Shown here: piece after piece, positions 19,679-58,584 of the stretch
How positions within the stretch are numbered: position 1 is the stretch's first letter
Layout: each line of letters starts with the position of its first letter
Assembly (NCBI GenBank): GCA_965222155.1
Contig: CBDCTH010000012.1
Coordinates: 448,001-512,000, forward strand
From: Gammaproteobacteria bacterium
Lineage (GTDB): Bacteria > Pseudomonadota > Gammaproteobacteria > Eutrophobiales > Eutrophobiaceae
Reading direction: 5' to 3'
Length of the DNA stretch: 64,000 nucleotides
The notes under the pieces: generated by a model
Told to the model about the DNA's origin: nothing
What the model saw: only the letters and a program-made list of their open reading frames with translations
Databases searched by the model: none
Made by a program: the position numbers and the translations under genes

Positions 19679-20050
19679 AGGATGGGGTCAGACCAGTTTA
19701 ATCTGTCACAACTTACTGATAATAAAGATAAATCATCTTTATAAGCAGGCTATCAGGCGGTTAGACTGTGGTTTTTTATGGACAAAACAGGCATTTAAGG
19801 AGGAAGCATCATGCCAAGAGCTAATCGTATCTTTTTACCGGGCCACATCTGGCACATCACCCACTGGTGTCATAACAAAGAAGTCCTGCTTAAGTTTGCT
19901 AATGACCGACAACGTTGGTTGCAAGGAAGACCTTGCCTGTTACAGCCTCCATTATCATAGCAAAATGGGGCTTTTAAGAGAATATAACAGCCATAAATAG
20001 AAAATAAACTAAGCAAAACAGATGGTTATGTGGGTCCGACCCTGGTTAGG
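19679..20050 (+). mobile_element. non-autonomous RAYT (HUH Y1 transposase) derivative, copy 1
   Basis: Ends ggggtcagacc / ggtccgaccc. RBS plus ORF 19811-19960 MPRANRIFLPGHIWHITHWCHNKEVLLKFANDRQRWL matches a RAYT N-terminus. Confidence 0.85.
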
Positions 20051-20405
20051 GGGGTCCGAATAAAGATAAATCATCTTTATAAGCAGGCTATCAGGCGGTT
20101 AGACTGTGGTTTTTTTATGGACAAAACAGGCATTTAAGGAGGAAGCATCATGCCAAGAGCTAATCGTATCTTTTTACCGGGCCACATCTGGCACATCACC
20201 CACTGGTGTCATAACAAAGAAGTCCTGCTTAAGTTTGCTAATGACCGACAGCGTTGGTTGCAAGGAAGACCTTGCCTGTTACAGCCTCCATTGTCATAGC
20301 AAAATGGGGCTTTTAAGAGAATATAACAGCCATAAATAGAAAATAAACTAAGCAAAACAGATGGTTATGTGGGTCCGACCCTGGTTAGGGCTGGTTAGGG
20401 TTAGG
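20051..20405 (+). mobile_element. tandem second copy of the RAYT derivative
   Basis: Near-identical duplicate with ORF 20150-20299, partly deleted left end, and terminal stutter ctggttaggg-ctggttaggg-ttagg. Confidence 0.85.
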
Positions 20406-27932: not shown

Positions 27933-28097
27933 GTCGCCCCCGGCTTACGACATGCCGGGGCAGGCTCCGGCGACACAGTATCATACTGGATGCCGGGACA
28001 AGCCCGGCATGACGACGGGGGTCAAACCCGGCATGACGACAGGGGTCAAACCCGGCATGACGACGGGGGACAAGCCCGGCATGACGACGGCTGGGGG
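27933..28097. repeat. REP cluster: hairpin carrying module C plus 4x 24-bp half-REP tandem
   Basis: ctggatgccgggacaagcccggcatgac followed by caa(a/g)cccggcatgacgac(g/a)gggg repeats. Confidence 0.85.
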
Positions 28098-28116
28098 CGA
28101 CACATTTTGCAACCTG

Positions 28117-31425: not shown

Positions 31426-32297
31426 TGGCTGTCCTGGTGAATAATGATACAAAGGTAATCGTCCAGGGATTTACCGGGCGCCAGGGCACTTTCCATGCAG
31501 AACAGGCGCTCGAATACGGGACGCAAATAGTCGGTGGCGTTACCCCGGGGCGCGGTGGCCAGACTCACCTGGACAGGCCTGTGTTCAATACCGTAAAAGA
31601 GGCGGTCATGGAAACCGCCGCGGACGCAAGTATGATAATGGTCCCGGCGGCGTTTGCGGCGCAGGCAATTACTGAGGCTGCCGAGGCCGGAATCAGGCTC
31701 ATAGTCTGTATCACCGAAGGCATCCCGATTATTGATATGGTCAGGGCCCGCGCCAGCATCGACCTGTATCCTGGAGTAAGGTTGATCGGCCCCAACTGCC
31801 CCGGCATCATTACGCCGGGGGAATGCAAGATAGGCATTATGCCGGGCCATATCCACAAGCCCGGTTGTATCGGTATCGTTTCCCGCTCGGGCACTTTAAC
31901 CTATGAGGCGGTACACCAGACCACACTGGCCGGACTTGGCCAGAGCACCTGTATCGGCGTCGGTGGCGATCCGATACACGGCATGAATTTCATTGATTGC
32001 CTGGAGCTGTTTCAACAGGACCCAGCCACAACCGGCATCATCATGGTGGGCGAGATAGGCGGCAGCGCCGAAGAGGAAGCGGCAGAGTTTATCGGACAGT
32101 ATGCCAATAAACCCGTAGTAGGTTATATTGCTGGCGTTACTGCGCCCCCGGGAAGGCGCATGGGACATGCCGGCGCGATTATTTCAGGCGGCAAAGGGAG
32201 TGCGAGCGACAAATTCTCCGCGCTTGATGCCGCCGGCGTAACAACCGTCAAGTCACCTGCCGAACTGGGTGAGGCTATTGCCGCAAAATTAAAGTGA
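31425..32297 (+). CDS. sucD: succinyl-CoA synthetase alpha subunit
   Basis: QGFTG..GTFH, GPNCPG, RMGHAGA. Confidence 0.98.
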
Positions 32298-34153
32298 ACA
32301 GAGTCGCTATTGCCCAGGTTGATTTGTGTGTCGGCGATATAGACGGTAATACGGAACTGGTTCTTGAATACATTTCCAGGGCCAGAGGCAGCGCCGGCGC
32401 AGATACGATAATATTCCCCGAGTTGGCCCTGACCGGTTATCCGCCGGAAGACCTGTTATTGCGTCCTCATTTCCACGTACAGGTGGAACAGGCCTTGCAA
32501 CGAGTGATGCACGGGTCGCAGGGCATAAGCGTTGTCCTCGGCTATCCGACGCAAAAAGAGACGCGCCTGTATAACTCCTGCAGTCTGGTCAGGGACGGGG
32601 AGGTCGTCACAACCTACCATAAAAGAAACTTGCCCAATTACGGTGTTTTCGACGAAAAACGTTATTTTACCGAGGGAGAAGAGCTGAATCTGGTTGAAAC
32701 CCCGGACCTCAAGGTTGCGCTGAGTGTATGTGAGGACCTGTGGACCGAAGACCACGTCAGCGAAGCAGCCGGCGCCGGGGCGGAGCTGCTGATCAATATC
32801 AACGCCTCTCCCTACCACACAGACAAATCCAGTGTCAGGGAGGTACTGCTGAAGCGCCGCGCCGTTGACCATAATATAGCGATCATCTACGTCAACCTGG
32901 TGGGCGGCCAGGATGAACTGATATTCGACGGTGGTTCCCTGGTCATAGATTGCCGTGGTGAATTCGTCTTCAAAGCCCCGCAGTTTGAACAGGGTCTGTA
33001 CCTGGTGGAGCTGGGACGGGCGGCGGCAGGCGCTATTACCGTGGAAGCCAAATCAGTGCAGTGTCCGCCCCTGGACTTTACCGAGAGCGTCTACCGGGCA
33101 CTGGTGCTTGGCGTCAAGGATTACGTGTTGAAAAACGGTTTCAAGGGTGCGGTTATCGGTTTGTCGGGCGGTATCGACTCGGCGCTGACCCTGGCTATCG
33201 CCGTGGATGCGCTCGGTCCGGAAAACGTTGAAGTGCTGCTGCTGCCGTCCCGTTACACTGCCGCCATGAGTGTCGAAGACGCACAGGAAATGGCCGATAA
33301 GCTGGGTGTCTCCTGCCATACGGTGAGTATTGAAAAACCTTTTTCGGCGTTCGCGGAAATTTTGTCACCGGTTTTCAAGGATCTCCCTATGGCCCGGACT
33401 TCTCACCAGGTGATGCGCCCTTGCTTGTCTTTTTTGCGCCAGTGGGCACGTGTTCCCTCAACCATAGCTACGGCTATGCGTTCGTTCGCAGGCGCCCACT
33501 GGCGCAAAAAATCCGGCGCATTCATTGCGCCCATCCCTGGGCGCAACCCTACGGGCGGCTGTCGCCGTGCAAATCGGCTATCCTGCCGATTTGTCATCGC
33601 ATCACTTGGTGAGAAATCCGAGCAGGACACGACCGAAGAAAATATCCAGGCCCGCTGCCGCGGATTGTTGCTTATGGCCGTATCCAACAAAACCGGCAAG
33701 CTGGTTTTGACGACGGGCAATAAAAGTGAAATGGCGGTGGGTTACGCAACCTTGTACGGGGATATGGCCGGTGGGTTTGCGCCGCTCAAAGACGTGCCGA
33801 AAATCCTGGTCTACAAACTGTCCCGCTGGCGCAACCGGACCGGGGAAATCATTCCGCAACGGATCATCGACCGCCCGCCCAGTGCGGAGTTACGTTTTGA
33901 CCAGAAAGACGAAGACTCCCTGCCTGGCTATGACGTGCTGGATCCGATACTGGAAAAATACATTGAGATGGACCACACTCCGGGTGAGATTATCGAAGCA
34001 GGCTATGACCGGGATACTGTCTACCAGGTGATCAGGCTGGTGGATAAAAATGAATACAAGCGCCGCCAGGCCGCTCCCGGCGTCAGGATCACAGAACGCG
34101 CCTTCGGTCGCGACCGGCGTTATCCTATTACTTCCCGCTACCAGGAAATATAA
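32294..34153 (+). CDS. nadE: glutamine-dependent NAD+ synthetase carrying a ~78-aa in-frame repeat insertion
   Basis: Nitrilase domain (FPEL, CED) and synthetase SGGIDS, EENIQAR, TGNKSE. 619 aa, against ~541 aa without the insert. Confidence 0.95.
33392..33623. mobile_element. element A (MITE-like) inside nadE
   Basis: 26-bp TIRs gcccggacttctcaccaggtgatgcg / cgcatcacttggtgagaaatccgagc. Homologous to 49533-49775 and 57309-57646. Confidence 0.92.
33524..33595. repeat. module B (72 bp, three hairpins) nested in element A
   Basis: attgcgcccatccctgggcgcaa...caaatcggctatcctgccgatttgtc with TC duplicated at the junction. Second copy at 57420-57491. Confidence 0.88.
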
Positions 34154-38820: not shown

Positions 38821-39459
38821 TTACTGCGTTTCAGTCTCCGCTTCCTCCGTTTCTTCCGCTTCCGTGTCATCGGCCGGTTCCCTGTACTCGAAAAGTTTTA
38901 CTACTTTCTGTACGCCCCCGGTGCGCCGGGCGATTTCCGTTGCTACGTCAGCTTCCTGCGTGGAAACCAGACCCATGAGGAAGGTAACGCCGTTCTCGTT
39001 TACAACTTTTATATGCAGGCTGCTCAGGTTTTTTTCCGCAATGATCTTTGCTTTTATCTTGGCGGTAACTACGGTGTCCGCACTGCGCGAGATAAGTGAA
39101 CTGGGGGCGGCAATTACGATTTCATCGTATACCCGGGTCACTTTTTCAACGTTTTTTACGAGGTCAATCACGGCCTGTCGATCCTCTTCGGTCGGCGCTT
39201 CCCCGCTGACCAGGACCGAGGTGTTATAACTGGTGAAATTGATATGCACCCGTTTGTTCAAATCTTTTTGATTCGACAACGCCAGGCGGGATTTAATCTC
39301 AATGGCTTCGTCTTCTATGAAAGTACCGGTCGTCCTCCGATCTGACGTCAGTGTTGTGACCGCGGTGGTGGCGCCGGTTACTGCTATGGGCGCGCAGCCT
39401 TGTAATACGAACAGCTGCGCAAGGAGGATGATTAACAGGTGGTAGTGTTGTATTTTCAT
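38821..39459 (-). CDS. dolP: BON-domain lipoprotein (YraP/DolP)
   Basis: Lipobox LQGC, DRRTTGT, two BON domains, position after gmhA. Confidence 0.88.
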
Positions 39460-43296: not shown

Positions 43297-43440
43297 GAAT
43301 TATGAATTATGGGGACACAATACTTAATTATCCCACCGTGAATTCTGCTGAATTAAGTATTGTGTCCCCATAACTTAAATTCTGCTGAATTAAGTATTGT
43401 GTCCCCATAACTCCCCGGCACTCCCCCCATAACTCCCTCC
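43297..43440. repeat. ggggacacaatact palindrome with duplicated, stuttered right arm
   Basis: ttatggggacacaatacttaatt / aattaagtattgtgtccccataa. Right arm repeated at 43378-43412, then ccccataact. Confidence 0.85.
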
Positions 43441-43445
43441 CCGTC

Positions 43446-43686
43446 GTCATGCCGGGCCTGACCCCCCGTCCGTCATGCCGGGCTTGACCCCCCCTCCGTC
43501 ATGCCGGGCTTGACCCCCCGTCCGTCATTCCGGGCTTGACCCGGAATCCAGTGAAACAAGGTGTCGCCTCCGGCGACACGTTATCTGACTGGATTTCCGT
43601 CCTTTGGTTCGTCAACGGCACATCCCCCTGCTTACAGCATGCAGGGGCAGGCTATGTGCCACTACTCGGCATTCGCCGGAATGACG
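43446..43686. repeat. REP doublet with 3 tandem half-REPs and nested modules
   Basis: gtcatgccgggc(c/t)tgacccccc x3, then gtcattccgggcttgacccggaatccag ... ctggatttccg[insert]gcattcgccggaatgac. Confidence 0.85.
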
Positions 43687-43770: not shown

Positions 43771-44146
43771 GGGAGTCAGCCGGGCAATCGCTGTCGGAAC
43801 GGATTGATTTTTTATCAATTCCGGTTCGGCAGAGGAAAGTCCGGGCTCCACAGGGGCAGGGCGCCAGGTAATTCCTGGGCGGCGCGAGTCGACGGAAAGT
43901 GCAACAGAAAGTATACCGCCCGGCCACTTACCCCAAGTGGCCGGGTAAGGGTGAAATGGTGCGGTAAGAGCGCACCGCGTGGCTGGCAACAGGCACGGCA
44001 TGGTAAACCCCGCCTGGAGCAAGGCCAAATAAGGGGGCGATAATGTGGCCCGCATTGTCCCCGGGTAGGCTGCTGGAGGTGTATGGTGACGTACATCCTA
44101 GATGAATGATTGTCCTGGACAGAACCCGGCTTACAGGCTGACTCCC
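43771..44146 (+). ncRNA. rnpB: RNase P RNA (type A)
   Basis: gaggaaagtccgggctcc, ggaaagtgcaacagaaa, ggtaaaccc, acagaacccggctta; P1 gggagtcagcc/ggctgactccc; position between rsmI and mraZ. Confidence 0.97.
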
Positions 44147-44181
44147 ACCTTGTTCCCCCGGTTTATTCCTGAATCCACACT

Positions 44182-44449
44182 CTTTTCTTAATAAAGTTTT
44201 ACCGTAAATCCAGGACACCCATCGTAAATCCAGGACACCCATAAATTCACTTTGCAGAAAGAAACGGGCCGGGTCTCAACCTGCCTAATTTTATGGGTGT
44301 CCTGAATTTGGCTTCCCTGAATTTGGCTTCCCTGAATTTGGCTTCCTGAATTTGGCTTCCTGAATTTGGCTTCTGAATTTGGCTTCTGAATTTGGGCTGA
44401 CTCCATTTTCTCCAGATATAAATCTGTCCCCTTTTCTTAATAAAGTTTT
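44182..44449. repeat. composite repeat insertion with a shortening tandem array, flanked by a 19-bp direct repeat
   Basis: cttttcttaataaagtttt at 44182-44200 and 44431-44449; ggacacccat palindrome; 7 copies of tgaatttgg at 44301-44397. Confidence 0.85.
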
Positions 44450-48040: not shown

Positions 48041-49563
48041 TGATGTTGCCCGTAAACAAGCGTCAAAGCGGTTTTCCATTGCAGATGCTGCTGGAAGGTC
48101 TGACTGATGCACGGGTCGAGGGTGATATTTCAGTTCAGGGGATCAGTTCGGACAGCCGTGAAATTCGCCCGGGTGATTTGTTTCTCGCCTGCCGGGGACC
48201 GAACACCCGCGGCAGCCTGTTCATCAACGCTGCGCTCAAGGCAGGGGCCGCGGCAGTGGTCGTGGATGAGGAATTGCTGTCCGACCTGGACCGGTGCCGG
48301 CCGGCGCTGTTTCCGGTAGCGGATTTACGCGCTAAACTGGGATTGATTGCCGGGCGGTTTTACGGCGATCCCACAAAACAGCTGCACCTCACCGGCGTTA
48401 CGGGAACCAACGGCAAAACCAGCGTAAGCTGGTGGCTGGCGAAACTCCATTCACTGCTGACGCGGACACAGGCGGGTTTGATCGGCACCCTGGGATACGG
48501 GTGTTATCCGCGCCTGCAATCCGGGCTTAATACAACCCCGGGCGCAGTCAGTTTACAGCGCTTGTTTGCCGGCTTCGTCGAAGCGGGCGCGGACACGGCG
48601 TTCATGGAGGTATCATCCCATGCCCTGGATCAGGGGCGCGTCAGCGAAGTCGATTTCGACGTTGCCGTGTTCACCAACCTGAGCCGGGACCATCTGGATT
48701 ACCACCGGAGCCTGGACGAGTACTTCCGCGCCAAACAAAAACTGTTTGCATTCAATTCATTGCGCGCTGCCGTGGTGAACTGTGATGACCCATACGGGCA
48801 GGCAATACTACGCGCTCTGCCGGCGGGCATAGAGGCGATCAGTTACGGTTTATCAGGCAATCCGCAACAGTCGGTTCAGCCTCTCGTCAGGGCAAGGCCG
48901 GCGCCGGGCGCTGAGCTTATCCTGGATATTACCAGTCCCTGGGGCAACGGCCAGGTGCGGCCGGGGGTAACGGGAAAATTCAACGTCGGCAATATACTGG
49001 CGCTGGTTTCGGTGCTGGGGCTGGCAGGGTTCCCGCTTGAGCGCATCCTGGAAAAGCTGGACAACATCGGCCCGGTACCGGGTCGTATGGAGAGTTTCAG
49101 ACGCGCAGACGGCGCCCAAATCGTCGTTGATTACGCCCATACCCCCGCCGCCCTGGAACAGGCCCTGGCAAGTCTGCGGGAATGTTGTGCGGGGCGGTTG
49201 ATCTGTGTTTTCGGCTGTGGCGGCGAACGGGATAAGGAAAAGCGGCCGCAGATGGGAGAACTGGCGGAACAACTTTCCGACGAAGTAATTTTAACTGATG
49301 ACAATCCGAGGTCTGAAGCCGGCGATGACATTATCGAGGCCATCCTCTCCGGCATAACCGCCAAGGGTTGCGCCACTATAGAGCGCAACCGTTCCAGGGC
49401 CATCGAGCTGGCGCTGGGGCGGGCCGGGCCCGCTGACGTGGTATTGATTGCCGGCAAGGGACATGAAACCTGTCAGGAAATTGCAGGTACGCGCTATCCC
49501 TTCAACGATCTGCAGCAGGTCAGGCAGTTGCTAGCCCGGAATTCTCACCAGGTGATGCGATGA
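48037..49563 (+). CDS. murE: UDP-MurNAc-tripeptide synthetase (C-terminus supplied by element A)
   Basis: GTNGKTS, MEVSSH, DYAHTP, DNPR, AGKGHE. Confidence 0.96.
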   Translation: MMMLPVNKRQSGFPLQMLLEGLTDARVEGDISVQGISSDSREIRPGDLFLACRGPNTRGSLFINAALKAGAAAVVVDEELLSDLDRCRPALFPVADLRAKLGLIAGRFYGDPTKQLHLTGVTGTNGKTSVSWWLAKLHSLLTRTQAGLIGTLGYGCYPRLQSGLNTTPGAVSLQRLFAGFVEAGADTAFMEVSSHALDQGRVSEVDFDVAVFTNLSRDHLDYHRSLDEYFRAKQKLFAFNSLRAAVVNCDDPYGQAILRALPAGIEAISYGLSGNPQQSVQPLVRARPAPGAELILDITSPWGNGQVRPGVTGKFNVGNILALVSVLGLAGFPLERILEKLDNIGPVPGRMESFRRADGAQIVVDYAHTPAALEQALASLRECCAGRLICVFGCGGERDKEKRPQMGELAEQLSDEVILTDDNPRSEAGDDIIEAILSGITAKGCATIERNRSRAIELALGRAGPADVVLIAGKGHETCQEIAGTRYPFNDLQQVRQLLARNSHQVMR

Positions 49564-49775
49564 TCGCGCCGGATTTTTGCCGCCAGCGGGTGCCTGCGAC
49601 CGAAAGCATAGCCGTAGTTCTGGTTGAGGGAGCACGTGCCCGCTGGCGGCAAAAAGACAAGCGAGGGCGCATCAAGCGTAGTTTATTCAGATGATATTGT
49701 AGACATGTTACCGCAACCTATTGACAGCAAACAAGTATTAGATGGCAACAAGCGGCTTGGTGAGAATTCCGGGCT
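49533..49775. mobile_element. element A between murE and murF
   Basis: TIR agcccggaattctcacca / tggtgagaattccgggct with a long internal hairpin. Confidence 0.92.
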
Positions 49776-55912: not shown

Positions 55913-57335
55913 TGGGCACAACATGGGTCGCGTCAGGCATATCCATTTTGTCGGTATTGGCGGAGCCGGCATGAGCGGGATAGCCGAAGTCCTGCATAAC
56001 CTGGGCTATACGGTGTCAGGCACGGACCTGAAGCAGGGCAACAGCACGGAACGGCTTGCAGACATGGGTGTCGAGGTGCGCTTTGAACACGAAGCGGAAT
56101 GTGTGAACGGCAGCGACGTGGTTGTTTATTCAAGCGCGATCCCGGCAGACAATCCGGAGTTGTCGGCAGCGCGCCGACAACGCATACCGATCATCCCGCG
56201 GGCCGAGATGCTGTCTGAACTGATGCGTTTCAGGGAAGGGGTTGCGGTAGCCGGCACCCACGGCAAGACGACAACAACCAGCCTGATCGCCAGCCTGCTG
56301 GCGGAAGGCATGTTCGACCCGACCTATATCATCGGTGGGCGCTTGAACATGACAGGTTCCCATGCCCGGCTCGGCAAGGGGAAATACATGGTAGCCGAGG
56401 CGGATGAGAGTGATGCCTCCTTCCTGCACCTGCAACCTGTCTATGCCGTGCTGACGAATATCGATGCCGATCACCTGGAGTACTGTGGCGGCAGTTACCA
56501 GGCGTTGCAAAACAACTTTATAGACTTCCTGCACTGCCTGCCGTTTTACGGTCTGGTGGTCATCTGCAGCGATGACGCCGGTATCCGCGGTATCGTCACC
56601 CGCATAAACCGGCCTTATGTCACCTATGGGATTGATTCCGACGCGGATTACCGGGCGGAAGCGATTCAATATGACGGGCCGACAACCCGGTTCAACATAG
56701 TGCGCCGCAACCAGGATGACGCGTTCCGGGTAACGCTGAACCTGCCGGGCCGGCATAACGTCCTGAATGCCCTGGCGGCAGTGGCGCTGGCTATCGAACT
56801 GGGCGTGTCGGAACAGGCAATAAGCGCCGGATTGGCAAACTTCCAGGGCATAGACCGCAGGAGTTCGATCCTGGGTGATATCCATATCGACGGCAAGACC
56901 GTATTGCTTATCGACGATTATGCCCACCACCCCAGTGAAATAGCCGCTATCAATAATGCTCTTGCTGACGGTTGGCCCGGCAGGAAAGTGGTCGTCGTGT
57001 TTCAACCGCACCGGTATACCCGTACCCGGGATCTTTTCGAAGAGTTCTGCCAGATATTGTCGGAACTCGACAGCTTGATTCTGCTTGACGTCTATCCCGC
57101 CGGGGAGCGCCCCATCAAGGGCGCCGACAGCCGTTCCCTGAGCCGGGCGCTCAGGGTCAGGGGCAAGGTGGAGCCTATTCTCGTCAACAATGAAACGGAA
57201 TTGCTGGCCGTGCTGGAAAACCTTACGGCGCAGAACGATATCCTGTTGCTGCTGGGCGCAGGAGATATCAGCGCCCTCGGTAGCCGGTTGCTCGACGTGT
57301 ACGGCACCAGCCCACATTTCTCACCAGATCGCTAG
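55905..57335 (+). CDS. murC: UDP-MurNAc:L-Ala ligase (C-terminus supplied by element A)
   Basis: GIGGAGMSG, GTHGKTTT, EADESD, DDYAHHP. Confidence 0.97.
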   Translation: MPDGHNMGRVRHIHFVGIGGAGMSGIAEVLHNLGYTVSGTDLKQGNSTERLADMGVEVRFEHEAECVNGSDVVVYSSAIPADNPELSAARRQRIPIIPRAEMLSELMRFREGVAVAGTHGKTTTTSLIASLLAEGMFDPTYIIGGRLNMTGSHARLGKGKYMVAEADESDASFLHLQPVYAVLTNIDADHLEYCGGSYQALQNNFIDFLHCLPFYGLVVICSDDAGIRGIVTRINRPYVTYGIDSDADYRAEAIQYDGPTTRFNIVRRNQDDAFRVTLNLPGRHNVLNALAAVALAIELGVSEQAISAGLANFQGIDRRSSILGDIHIDGKTVLLIDDYAHHPSEIAAINNALADGWPGRKVVVVFQPHRYTRTRDLFEEFCQILSELDSLILLDVYPAGERPIKGADSRSLSRALRVRGKVEPILVNNETELLAVLENLTAQNDILLLLGAGDISALGSRLLDVYGTSPHFSPDR

Positions 57336-57646
57336 TTGCCCTCCGATAATTTATTGCTATCAATACATAATGATAATTCACTTACTATATAGACATTACA
57401 GACTGCGCTTGATGCGTTCATTGCATCCATCCCTGGACGCAACCCTACGGGCGGCTATCGCCGTGCAAATCGGCTGTCCTGCCGATTTGTCTCGCTTGTC
57501 TTTTTCCCGCCAACGGGTACGTGCTCCCTCAACCAGAGTCCCAGCTATGCTTTCGGTCCCCGTATCAAGTACGGGGCAGACTCCGGCACCCGTTGGTGGG
57601 AAAAATCCTGCGCGATCATCGCATCACCTGATGAGAAATGCGGGCT
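57309..57646. mobile_element. element A between murC and murB with nested modules B and C
   Basis: TIR agcccacatttctcaccag / ctgatgagaaatgcgggct. Module B at 57420-57491, module C at 57558-57582. Confidence 0.9.
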
Positions 57647-57660
57647 TCGGGGCGATTGAG

Positions 57661-58584
57661 ATGCTTATGGAAACTGTTTCGACACGCCTGAACAGCCGGC
57701 CTGAGAAAGCGCCGGGGCGCGGCCTGCTCAAAACAGGCGAGAAGATGTCCAGGCATACTTCATGGAAAGTCGGCGGACCGGCAGACCGGTTTTATGTCCC
57801 TGCCGATGAGGACGACCTGGCCGGCTTCCTCGCGGCACTGGCGGATGACGAACCTGTTACCTGGATTGGCCTGGGCAGTAACGTACTGGTACGGGACGGC
57901 GGTATCAGGGGGACGGTCATTTCAACAGCCGGCATGAAGCAAAGGCTTGAGTTGATTCCCGACAACGCAGTACGGGCGGGCTGTGGCGTGGCTTGCGCAA
58001 AAATCGCCCGGTTCAGCGCCGGGGCCGGATTGGCCGGCGCTGAATTCCTGGCGGGTATCCCGGGTTCAGTGGGGGGTGCGCTGGTCATGAATGCCGGCGC
58101 CTTCGGCGTCGAGACCTGGAGCATCGTCGAACAGGTGGAAACGGTTACGCGTAACGGCAGGCGGGTTCAAAGACCGGGCGCTGACTTTGCAACCGGTTAC
58201 CGCCAGGTCGACCTGGCGGATGGCGAATGGTTCGTCAGCGCGCTGTTGCGGCTTCAAGCCGATGCTGACGGAAAAGCGCAGCAGCGTATCAGGGAATTGC
58301 TGGCCAGAAGAACTGAAACCCAGCCGACCGGGAAGTTCAGTTGCGGCTCCGTATTCAAGAATCCCGCGGGTGATTTCGCCGGGCGCCTGATCGAGCAGTG
58401 CGGTTTGAAAGGCTTTGCCGTTGGCGATGCCCATGTGTCGGACAAACATGCGAACTTTATCATCAATGCCGGCAAGGCGCGCGCAGGGGATATCGAGGCC
58501 CTGATATTACACATACAGGCAACCGTTAAGGAGATGACGGGTATCAGATTAATCCCGGAAGTAAGAATCATCGGTGCATCATAG
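57661..58584 (+). CDS. murB: UDP-GlcNAc-enolpyruvate reductase
   Basis: HTSWKVGGPA, GLGSNVL, GIPGSVGGA, GSVFKNP, KHANF. Confidence 0.95.
   Translation: MLMETVSTRLNSRPEKAPGRGLLKTGEKMSRHTSWKVGGPADRFYVPADEDDLAGFLAALADDEPVTWIGLGSNVLVRDGGIRGTVISTAGMKQRLELIPDNAVRAGCGVACAKIARFSAGAGLAGAEFLAGIPGSVGGALVMNAGAFGVETWSIVEQVETVTRNGRRVQRPGADFATGYRQVDLADGEWFVSALLRLQADADGKAQQRIRELLARRTETQPTGKFSCGSVFKNPAGDFAGRLIEQCGLKGFAVGDAHVSDKHANFIINAGKARAGDIEALILHIQATVKEMTGIRLIPEVRIIGAS

Follow-up and report, generated by a model that had tools for sequence, protein, structure and literature searches.

How a conserved metabolic enzyme comes to carry a repeat element in the middle of its coding sequence is the question raised by the nadE gene in the 64,000-nucleotide stretch of gammaproteobacterial DNA analysed here (the window). 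An earlier note had described in this gene a 232-bp element bounded by terminal inverted repeats and translated as a 78-residue insert, and had compared it with the Rickettsia palindromic elements (RPEs). That palindromes can lie in frame within essential genes has been clear since the RPEs, and the history and the cost of such inserts are thinly known. The nadE insert is a real and well-documented variant of this known phenomenon, and its value lies in a natural series of nadE alleles, which is new here, and in a small nested module.

The repeat element inside nadE

The nadE gene (32294..34153, forward strand) encodes a glutamine-dependent NAD+ synthetase of 619 aa, compared with 541 aa in relatives. 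The product has the nitrilase and synthetase domains and the conserved motifs of the PRK13981 type, and scores 748 bits against NF010588, above the cut-off of 479. When we aligned it with NadE homologues, 79 residues were found between FKDLP and DTTEEN where relatives have a single residue, so that the gain is indeed 78 residues (about 366-444). The element that adds these codons together with a 2-bp duplication is a short copy of a miniature element, here called element A, with a nested module B; it occupies 33392..33623 on the forward strand, and the coordinates and reading frame claimed for it were right. It is bounded by 26-bp repeats at 33392..33417 (forward strand) and 33598..33623 (reverse strand), of which the right one differs at two positions from the usual sequence of the family, and RNA folding places a long inner hairpin of element A at 33430..33511 (forward strand). 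The whole element folds far better than expected (z = -11.4, with none of 200 shuffles as good). The left copy of the duplicated target (33390..33391, forward strand) is TG, where the family usually has TA, and the right copy (33624..33625, forward strand) has changed to AG, and thus the two copies are no longer identical.

The site was empty in 27 of 29 related loci and unreadable in the other two. In G019, the closest species representative, it reads CCC GTG GAT, which makes the net gain here 234 bp. The insert is also present in contigs from sequencing runs, whereas a lack of read support would have undone the earlier claim: in runs X2, X3 and X4, which come from three studies, both junctions, left and right, are crossed by contigs that have 0-1 differences, and the element is not skipped in any joint, although such contigs drop rare variants and none of them spans the full insert by itself. 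Independent assemblies carry the A insert in nadE as well. The RNA run X18 held other copies of the repeat and unrelated pieces only, without this strain.

The possibility that this nadE is a decaying duplicate of an intact copy elsewhere did not survive examination. In a profile search of the genome it was the sole full NadE copy, and two other PF02540 matches were rejected as a second NadE, since their alignments (34.8 and 27.8 bits) are confined to the N-terminal portion of the model. E43, K110 and C146, which we take to be the nitrilase triad, and the motifs SGGxDS, EENIQ.R and TGNKSE are conserved over 46 NadE sequences. In the comparison with G019, dN/dS is 0.18 for the whole gene and 0.12 for the part downstream of the insert, and the values for the other 14 pairs in the genus are 0.10-0.14. 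Lineage-specific changes comprise 19 synonymous and 9 conservative-looking replacement changes here, and 13 and 6 in G019, which is an equal ratio. These results indicate that nadE is under purifying selection. In the established pathway, NAD synthesis runs through NadE. Since nadA, nadC and a nadD-like gene were found in the genome, and searches of the genome for the salvage or bypass entries PF04095 and PnuC (PF04973) gave no match, NAD synthesis should pass through NadE in this organism also. The essentiality of NadE is stated in passages of PMC7196632 and PMC6946656.

We then placed the loop by structure prediction. In the AlphaFold model, the insert is a low-confidence segment between two helices (347-361 and 447-467) of an intact two-domain fold, with pLDDT values below 50 for residues 367-444, and the rest of the model resembles 4F4H, 5KHA and 3N05. 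When the insert was modelled alone, the pLDDT was 43 and no confident fold was obtained; such low values are expected for any sequence without homologues and are no proof of disorder. The insert is strongly basic, with 14 Arg and Lys against 2 Asp and Glu. The equivalent loop in 3N05 is 6 residues shorter. A metagenome scan with one of the insert-bearing proteins (P0003) as query yielded 79 readable distant NadE sequences (43-56% identical), among which the loop length is invariant in 78 and none carries an insert. NadE is a dimer, and the helix that begins two residues after the insertion site presumably carries substrate-binding residues. Because the length of this loop is so nearly invariant and the site lies so close to that helix, a cost of the insert is likely.

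Element A, module B and related repeats

The genome has 131 clusters that contain A, and in 83 copies of the family both ends are present. The long form is about 241 bp and contains an AT-rich segment, as in the copy at 49534..49774 (241 bp, reverse strand), which lies at a gene junction and whose site is empty in G019; the short form is 160 bp and accounts for 6 of the 83 complete elements. The earlier note had taken the nadE copy to have lost the AT-rich segment. Its absence was confirmed, but it is not specific to nadE, and since the short form is a standing subfamily, a loss of the segment as an adaptation to nadE is ruled out. A short A with its 2-bp duplication adds 162 bp net, or 54 codons, and five of five plain short copies are open in the nadE frame. 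The frame of nadE is intact after two insertions, as had been noted, but this outcome is in part inherent in the elements, whose net gains (162 bp for short A, 72 bp for module B) are the same at any site. Among 51 nested A copies, six are both a multiple of three in length and open in the nadE frame, one of them being the nadE copy. The A peptide was matched in 20 of 22 other genomes of the genus, and with the peptide as query in none of 58 genomes of the same family outside the genus. In a relative (G010), long-form copies also occur in head-to-tail arrays with a 243-bp period (L142, L146).

The ends of element A led us to the IS1380 family. Three elements of this family in the genome (C4:218570-220339, C12:1242096-1243865 and C12:3474027-3475669) share 15-17 of their first 17-18 terminal bases with A, and have TA-containing flanks in common with it; the left repeat of the nadE copy belongs to this conserved end. 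They match PF13701 with 402 bits and NF033539 with 314 bits against a cut-off of 180, the latter tested on one element, and the two whose sequences were inspected seem to carry frameshifts or to be shortened. Unlike these elements, A has no transposase, substitutions often set its flanks apart from the empty site, and no likeness was found beyond the ends. Element A is short, transposase-less and multicopy, with 83 complete copies and both filled and empty sites, and based on the terminal bases common to A and the transposase-bearing elements it is best read as an IS1380-type miniature element (MITE).

Comparison with 1.6 of the 3.5 Mb of G019 gave 37 short-gap pairs of filled and empty A sites. 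The net gain was the element length plus 2 bp in 19 of the 37 pairs (4 bp if the outermost bases are counted as target), and around the 83 complete copies an exact 2-bp duplication was found in 50 and an exact 4-bp duplication in 28. The target-site duplication of IS1380 is 4-5 bp. In 18 clean pairs, substitutions occupied 53 of 180 positions within 5 bp of the junctions against 49 of 1080 positions at 11-40 bp, which is about six times denser beside the element, and in two coding cases outgroups indicate that the filled allele is the one that changed at the junction.

The resemblance to RPEs was examined in detail. RPEs are described in the available part of PMC10969869 as elements of about 150 bp, with nearly half of their copies in open reading frames, and an RPE-bearing guanylate kinase (Gmk) is translated into an active enzyme (Abergel 2006, as given in a passage of PMC2229807). 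Element A is likewise a palindrome of about that size with a long stem-loop and one open frame, inserted in frame in conserved metabolic genes: short A has 160 bp and the strong fold given above, and the same peptide frame is used in the unrelated NadE, an MFS transporter and YidD. In contrast to nearly half of RPE copies, however, 3 of about 80 complete A copies lie inside open reading frames, in a scan that can miss short genes. A also differs from RPEs in its host class, the relatives of the host being labelled Gammaproteobacteria, in ends that can be traced to IS1380, and in that the nadE insert grows by nested 72-bp modules and its translation is a prediction. We do not file A as an RPE, given how many fewer of its copies are intragenic and how its ends lead to IS1380; it works like one but appears to be a different family, set apart by these two features.

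Other repeats are known to enter proteins. Intragenic REP clusters of the GTAG/CGTC families contribute up to 82 aa in frame in the accessible portion of PMC3733652, and in-frame fusions of ERIC and YPAL are described in the part of PMC2759123 available to us. The repeat-derived stretches in known proteins reported in these portions are 20-82 aa and include fusions in signal-peptide regions, so that the size and setting of the nadE insert are not unprecedented. Unlike REP, A has no GTAG/CGTC tag, and the RU fusions to conserved domains in those portions are at protein ends, whereas the nadE insert is inside the catalytic domain. In the full texts searched, with subscription journals and supplements outside the search, we found no report of element A, module B, a MITE in nadE or nested growth inside an essential enzyme.

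The earlier note spoke of a protein-invading family. The in-frame, RPE-like behaviour stood, but the word invading overstated it, since those 3 of about 80 complete copies are the ones read through. When the coding sequences were scanned for A, only two of 151 A or B clusters were internal with coding sequence on both sides: nadE, and a short A in the nadE frame in the central loop of an MFS transporter (C12:629651-629810, L111), a site that is empty in each of the 13 relatives possessing the gene. The third case, at codon 4 of yidD, was verified in the genome and had been missed by the cluster scan because the gene is short. Element A is mostly at gene junctions, other high-scoring cases lie on stop codons or near starts, and no internal copy with a stop inside a host gene was seen among the 151 clusters. 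The same frame is also open upstream of murB, as the earlier note had stated, in a long-form A with nested B (57310..57645, forward strand), but an ATG of murB's own lies at 57661/57667, and the MurB domain begins at residue 18. We rejected murB as a second invaded gene; the element overlaps the end of murC, to which it supplies the last codons, and lies outside murB.

A HMMER search with the insert against 1.84 billion representatives, which is weak for short inserts in long proteins, gave 19 matches and no further invaded enzyme; of the 10 inspected, 8 look like chance open reading frames over the repeat and 2 are unrelated repeat proteins. A search among shorter proteins, with the same weakness, gave three matches including one N-terminal fusion. 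In relatives, none of 20 long-frame candidates was an internal insertion with coding sequence on both sides and several were N-terminal; their long open frames are mostly N-terminal fusions, for example of LolB and a BON-domain lipoprotein. No internal A was found among the best 14 of 28 clusters in 1.6 Mb of G019, save a 24-nt in-frame remnant.

Module B (33521..33595, forward strand) is a 75-nt hairpin element without terminal repeats. It stands in place of a 3-nt target, and the 72-bp (24-codon) gain described before was thus borne out; the empty targets replaced elsewhere are TTC, CTC and CCC, and ATC at the nadE position. In the first profile search the genome gave 70 matches to B, most of them nested in A at no fewer than three positions. 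Some copies lie in frame in transposase remnants: in DDE transposase remnants it occurs at one codon (C12:36531, 2186713, 3368962 and 3196550), in frame in three, and another nested module disrupts the fourth. With an exact pattern, B was found in no fewer than 95 stretches of other genomes, usually within other palindromic repeats. Its carriers include Methylococcaceae and the cultured Rhodanobacter, Luteimonas and Pseudoxanthomonas, which exposes B as a small element of wide distribution. On the opposite strand, the hairpin that lies outside the pattern used for the search reads CANGGATG; this holds for 60 of 86 distinct copies, and the stems change in pairs across copies. The GGA hairpin loops, which we take to resemble a CsrA site, are on the antisense strand in nadE. 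A CrtC-like protein (P0004 cluster) has B by itself as an in-frame polymorphism close to its N-terminus (391 versus 415 aa). We rejected tRNA as its main target, as 2 of 59 loci scanned fit; in Luteimonas, B was seen inside an apparent tRNA-Ser 3' repeat beside a tRNA-Ser gene (L265, L302). Long open reading frames across B in other taxa were left out of our counts, and many of them look like GC-rich shadow frames.

The inner hairpins of YPAL (RU-2) have GGA loops that resemble those of module B. Among 150 of 720 candidates in this genome scored against RF02770, however, the best reached 24.1 bits against a cut-off of 70, and there was no match at the nadE insert itself. Small hairpin elements with a preference for other repeats as targets also include the short insertions that lie within ERIC repeats, and the small dispersed repeats known from cyanobacteria; B resembles them in these traits and may be one of them.

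Allele series and spread of the insert

A search with the insert as query found two more NadE clusters, and a series of natural alleles emerged: an empty form of 541 aa, a form with A only of 595 aa, the form with A and B of this genome (619 aa), and a form with A and a different 24-codon module, also of 619 aa. Of 17 close NadE sequences, 11 have A only (54 extra residues), 2 have 78 extra residues, 3 are cut within the insert and 1 ends short of the site; none is empty, but all were found through the insert and these counts are no allele frequency. All 13 full insert alleles are in frame and free of stops. In this genome B sits after KKSGA, while in P0006 the other module sits a few codons earlier and matches a second repeat family of this genome, which occupies the equivalent place in intergenic A copies. 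The two 78-residue alleles are thus independent. That both of the open nested alleles keep the frame gives a hint of selection for frame, a weak one, because many of the 51 nested copies are long-form or multiply nested. Four natural alleles of one easily assayed enzyme, with 0, 54, 78 and a different 78 extra residues, bring three things within direct experimental reach: the cost of a junk loop, its fate (purging, neutrality or selection), and the way in which new loops grow by nesting.

To follow the spread, a protein tree was built from the host part of NadE only, with 17 rows, fragments and some near-identical rows being left out. G019, which is empty, falls within a well-supported group that also contains 9 insert alleles, and P0017, which bears the insert, falls outside it; a single clade of insert alleles was rejected on this tree (p-AU 0.010). 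Since the insert alleles do not form one clade, spread of the insert by recombination is suggested. An old insertion with a precise loss in G019 is the alternative, and recombination explains the pattern best. P0017 and P0003 differ at 56 of 540 host residues and at 3 of 55 insert residues, with flanking residues common to both, which fits recombination but would also fit constraint. Between this genome (P0001) and P0003, on the other hand, 10 of 55 insert residues and 23 of 540 host residues differ (p = 0.0004), and by this comparison the insert has drifted faster than the host in this genome, which speaks for relaxed constraint.

Origin of the insert and alternative explanations

Based on these observations, we suggest the following course of events, which as a whole probably accounts for the insert. 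An IS1380-family transposase, as the shared ends suggest, would have inserted the 160-bp short A into the codon just before the nadE helix. With the 2-bp duplication the element makes 54 codons, and as its frame has no stop, the gene stayed open. The insert would then be translated and borne at the protein surface as a disordered, basic loop, with the result that the enzyme presumably works and the allele would be close to neutral. Hairpin modules with a preference for other repeats could next have landed in it: B was added here and a related 72-bp module at another position in P0006, the two alleles being observed and the order of events being our reading. Additions that break the frame would be lethal, and none was seen among the alleles. 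Finally, homologous recombination may have moved the insert-bearing stretch between related lineages. The RPE-like in-frame insert proposed by the earlier note therefore lies in an intact and apparently essential gene, as proposed, with its translation deduced from the sequence, and the essential enzyme seems to tolerate a growing junk loop of 54 to 78 residues, much as in Rickettsia.

The insert may instead be useful and have spread between lineages under selection: its long hairpin would tune the stability or translation of the nadE mRNA, with RNase III as one conceivable route, or its basic loop would change feedback or the binding of partners. It is shared by host lineages 10% apart in protein and is nearly unchanged between them, and passages of PMC7196632 describe dimeric NadE as regulated by feedback and PII. 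Partial deletions of A at several other sites in G019 show that removal is possible, yet runs X2, X3 and X4 contained no empty allele. However, the insert changes faster than the host protein in this genome and gives no coding signal (scoring -0.26 per codon, compared with +0.4), G019, which falls among the insert alleles, does without it, and the CsrA-type loops of B are antisense in nadE; we consider a useful insert quite unlikely. If, on the other hand, the insert were removed or skipped after transcription, its terminal repeats would pair and allow RNA processing or ribosomal bypass, or the loop would be clipped from the protein. Both ends do fall in one stem of -136 kcal/mol and the host loop is normally of fixed length, but no Rfam or Pfam family, including ribozymes and introns, matched the insert, the duplicated target copies no longer match, and removal would not require the open, in-frame state of 13 of 13 full alleles or the lack of stop-bearing internal copies. 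As the RPE in guanylate kinase is moreover translated in an active enzyme (passage of PMC2229807), removal seems to us highly unlikely.

A further reading is that nadE is dead or dying, or that the insert is an assembly error; the genome does have 7.3% contamination and its NadE a longer end branch in the host-protein tree than close kin (0.028 versus 0.002-0.018). This is largely refuted and very improbable, since both junctions were crossed in three studies, the A insert is present in independent assemblies, searches of the genome gave neither another NadE nor a salvage entry, and the ratio of synonymous to replacement changes is that of G019. Going further than the tolerated translated loop that we prefer, one could also imagine a two-tier system of frame-adapted parasites, in which the first in-frame insertion is a heritable landing pad inside the essential enzyme, module B and its kin, widespread in Gammaproteobacteria and brought in by some recombinase, act as a ratchet of 24 codons, rewritten junctions block clean excision, and a favoured or driving allele spreads across species. 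Such a system would build new protein loops with an undescribed insertion chemistry, and we regard it as unlikely.

Several further placements of these repeats were observed. In relatives, A lies at leucine codons in lipoprotein signal regions (BON-domain, TPR and LolB; L145, L138 and L143 in G006, G007 and G010), where an end of A can supply a new ATG and a basic stretch, and an empty BON-domain gene is at 38821-39459 of the window. A composite element at C12:800186-800588 splits a gene judged by eye to encode an NtrY-like kinase two codons after its start, and the 24-nt in-frame remnant in G019 (L162:10585-10610) lies in an NtrY-like kinase gene, apparently after a frame-restoring deletion. 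On stop codons, at C12:1966123-1966435 and C1:54017-54209, A gives Dxr-like and FwdB-like proteins (by eye) a short C-terminal tail, and a stretch derived from A or B lies at the predicted N-terminus of LpxB in P0005, upstream of the domain and perhaps untranslated. The other repeats of the window, at 27988-28112, 43436-43539, 44288-44408 and 19772-20390, are short tandem palindromes, a 13-15-bp tandem tract beside the RNase P RNA (43772-44149), and a 280-bp direct repeat.
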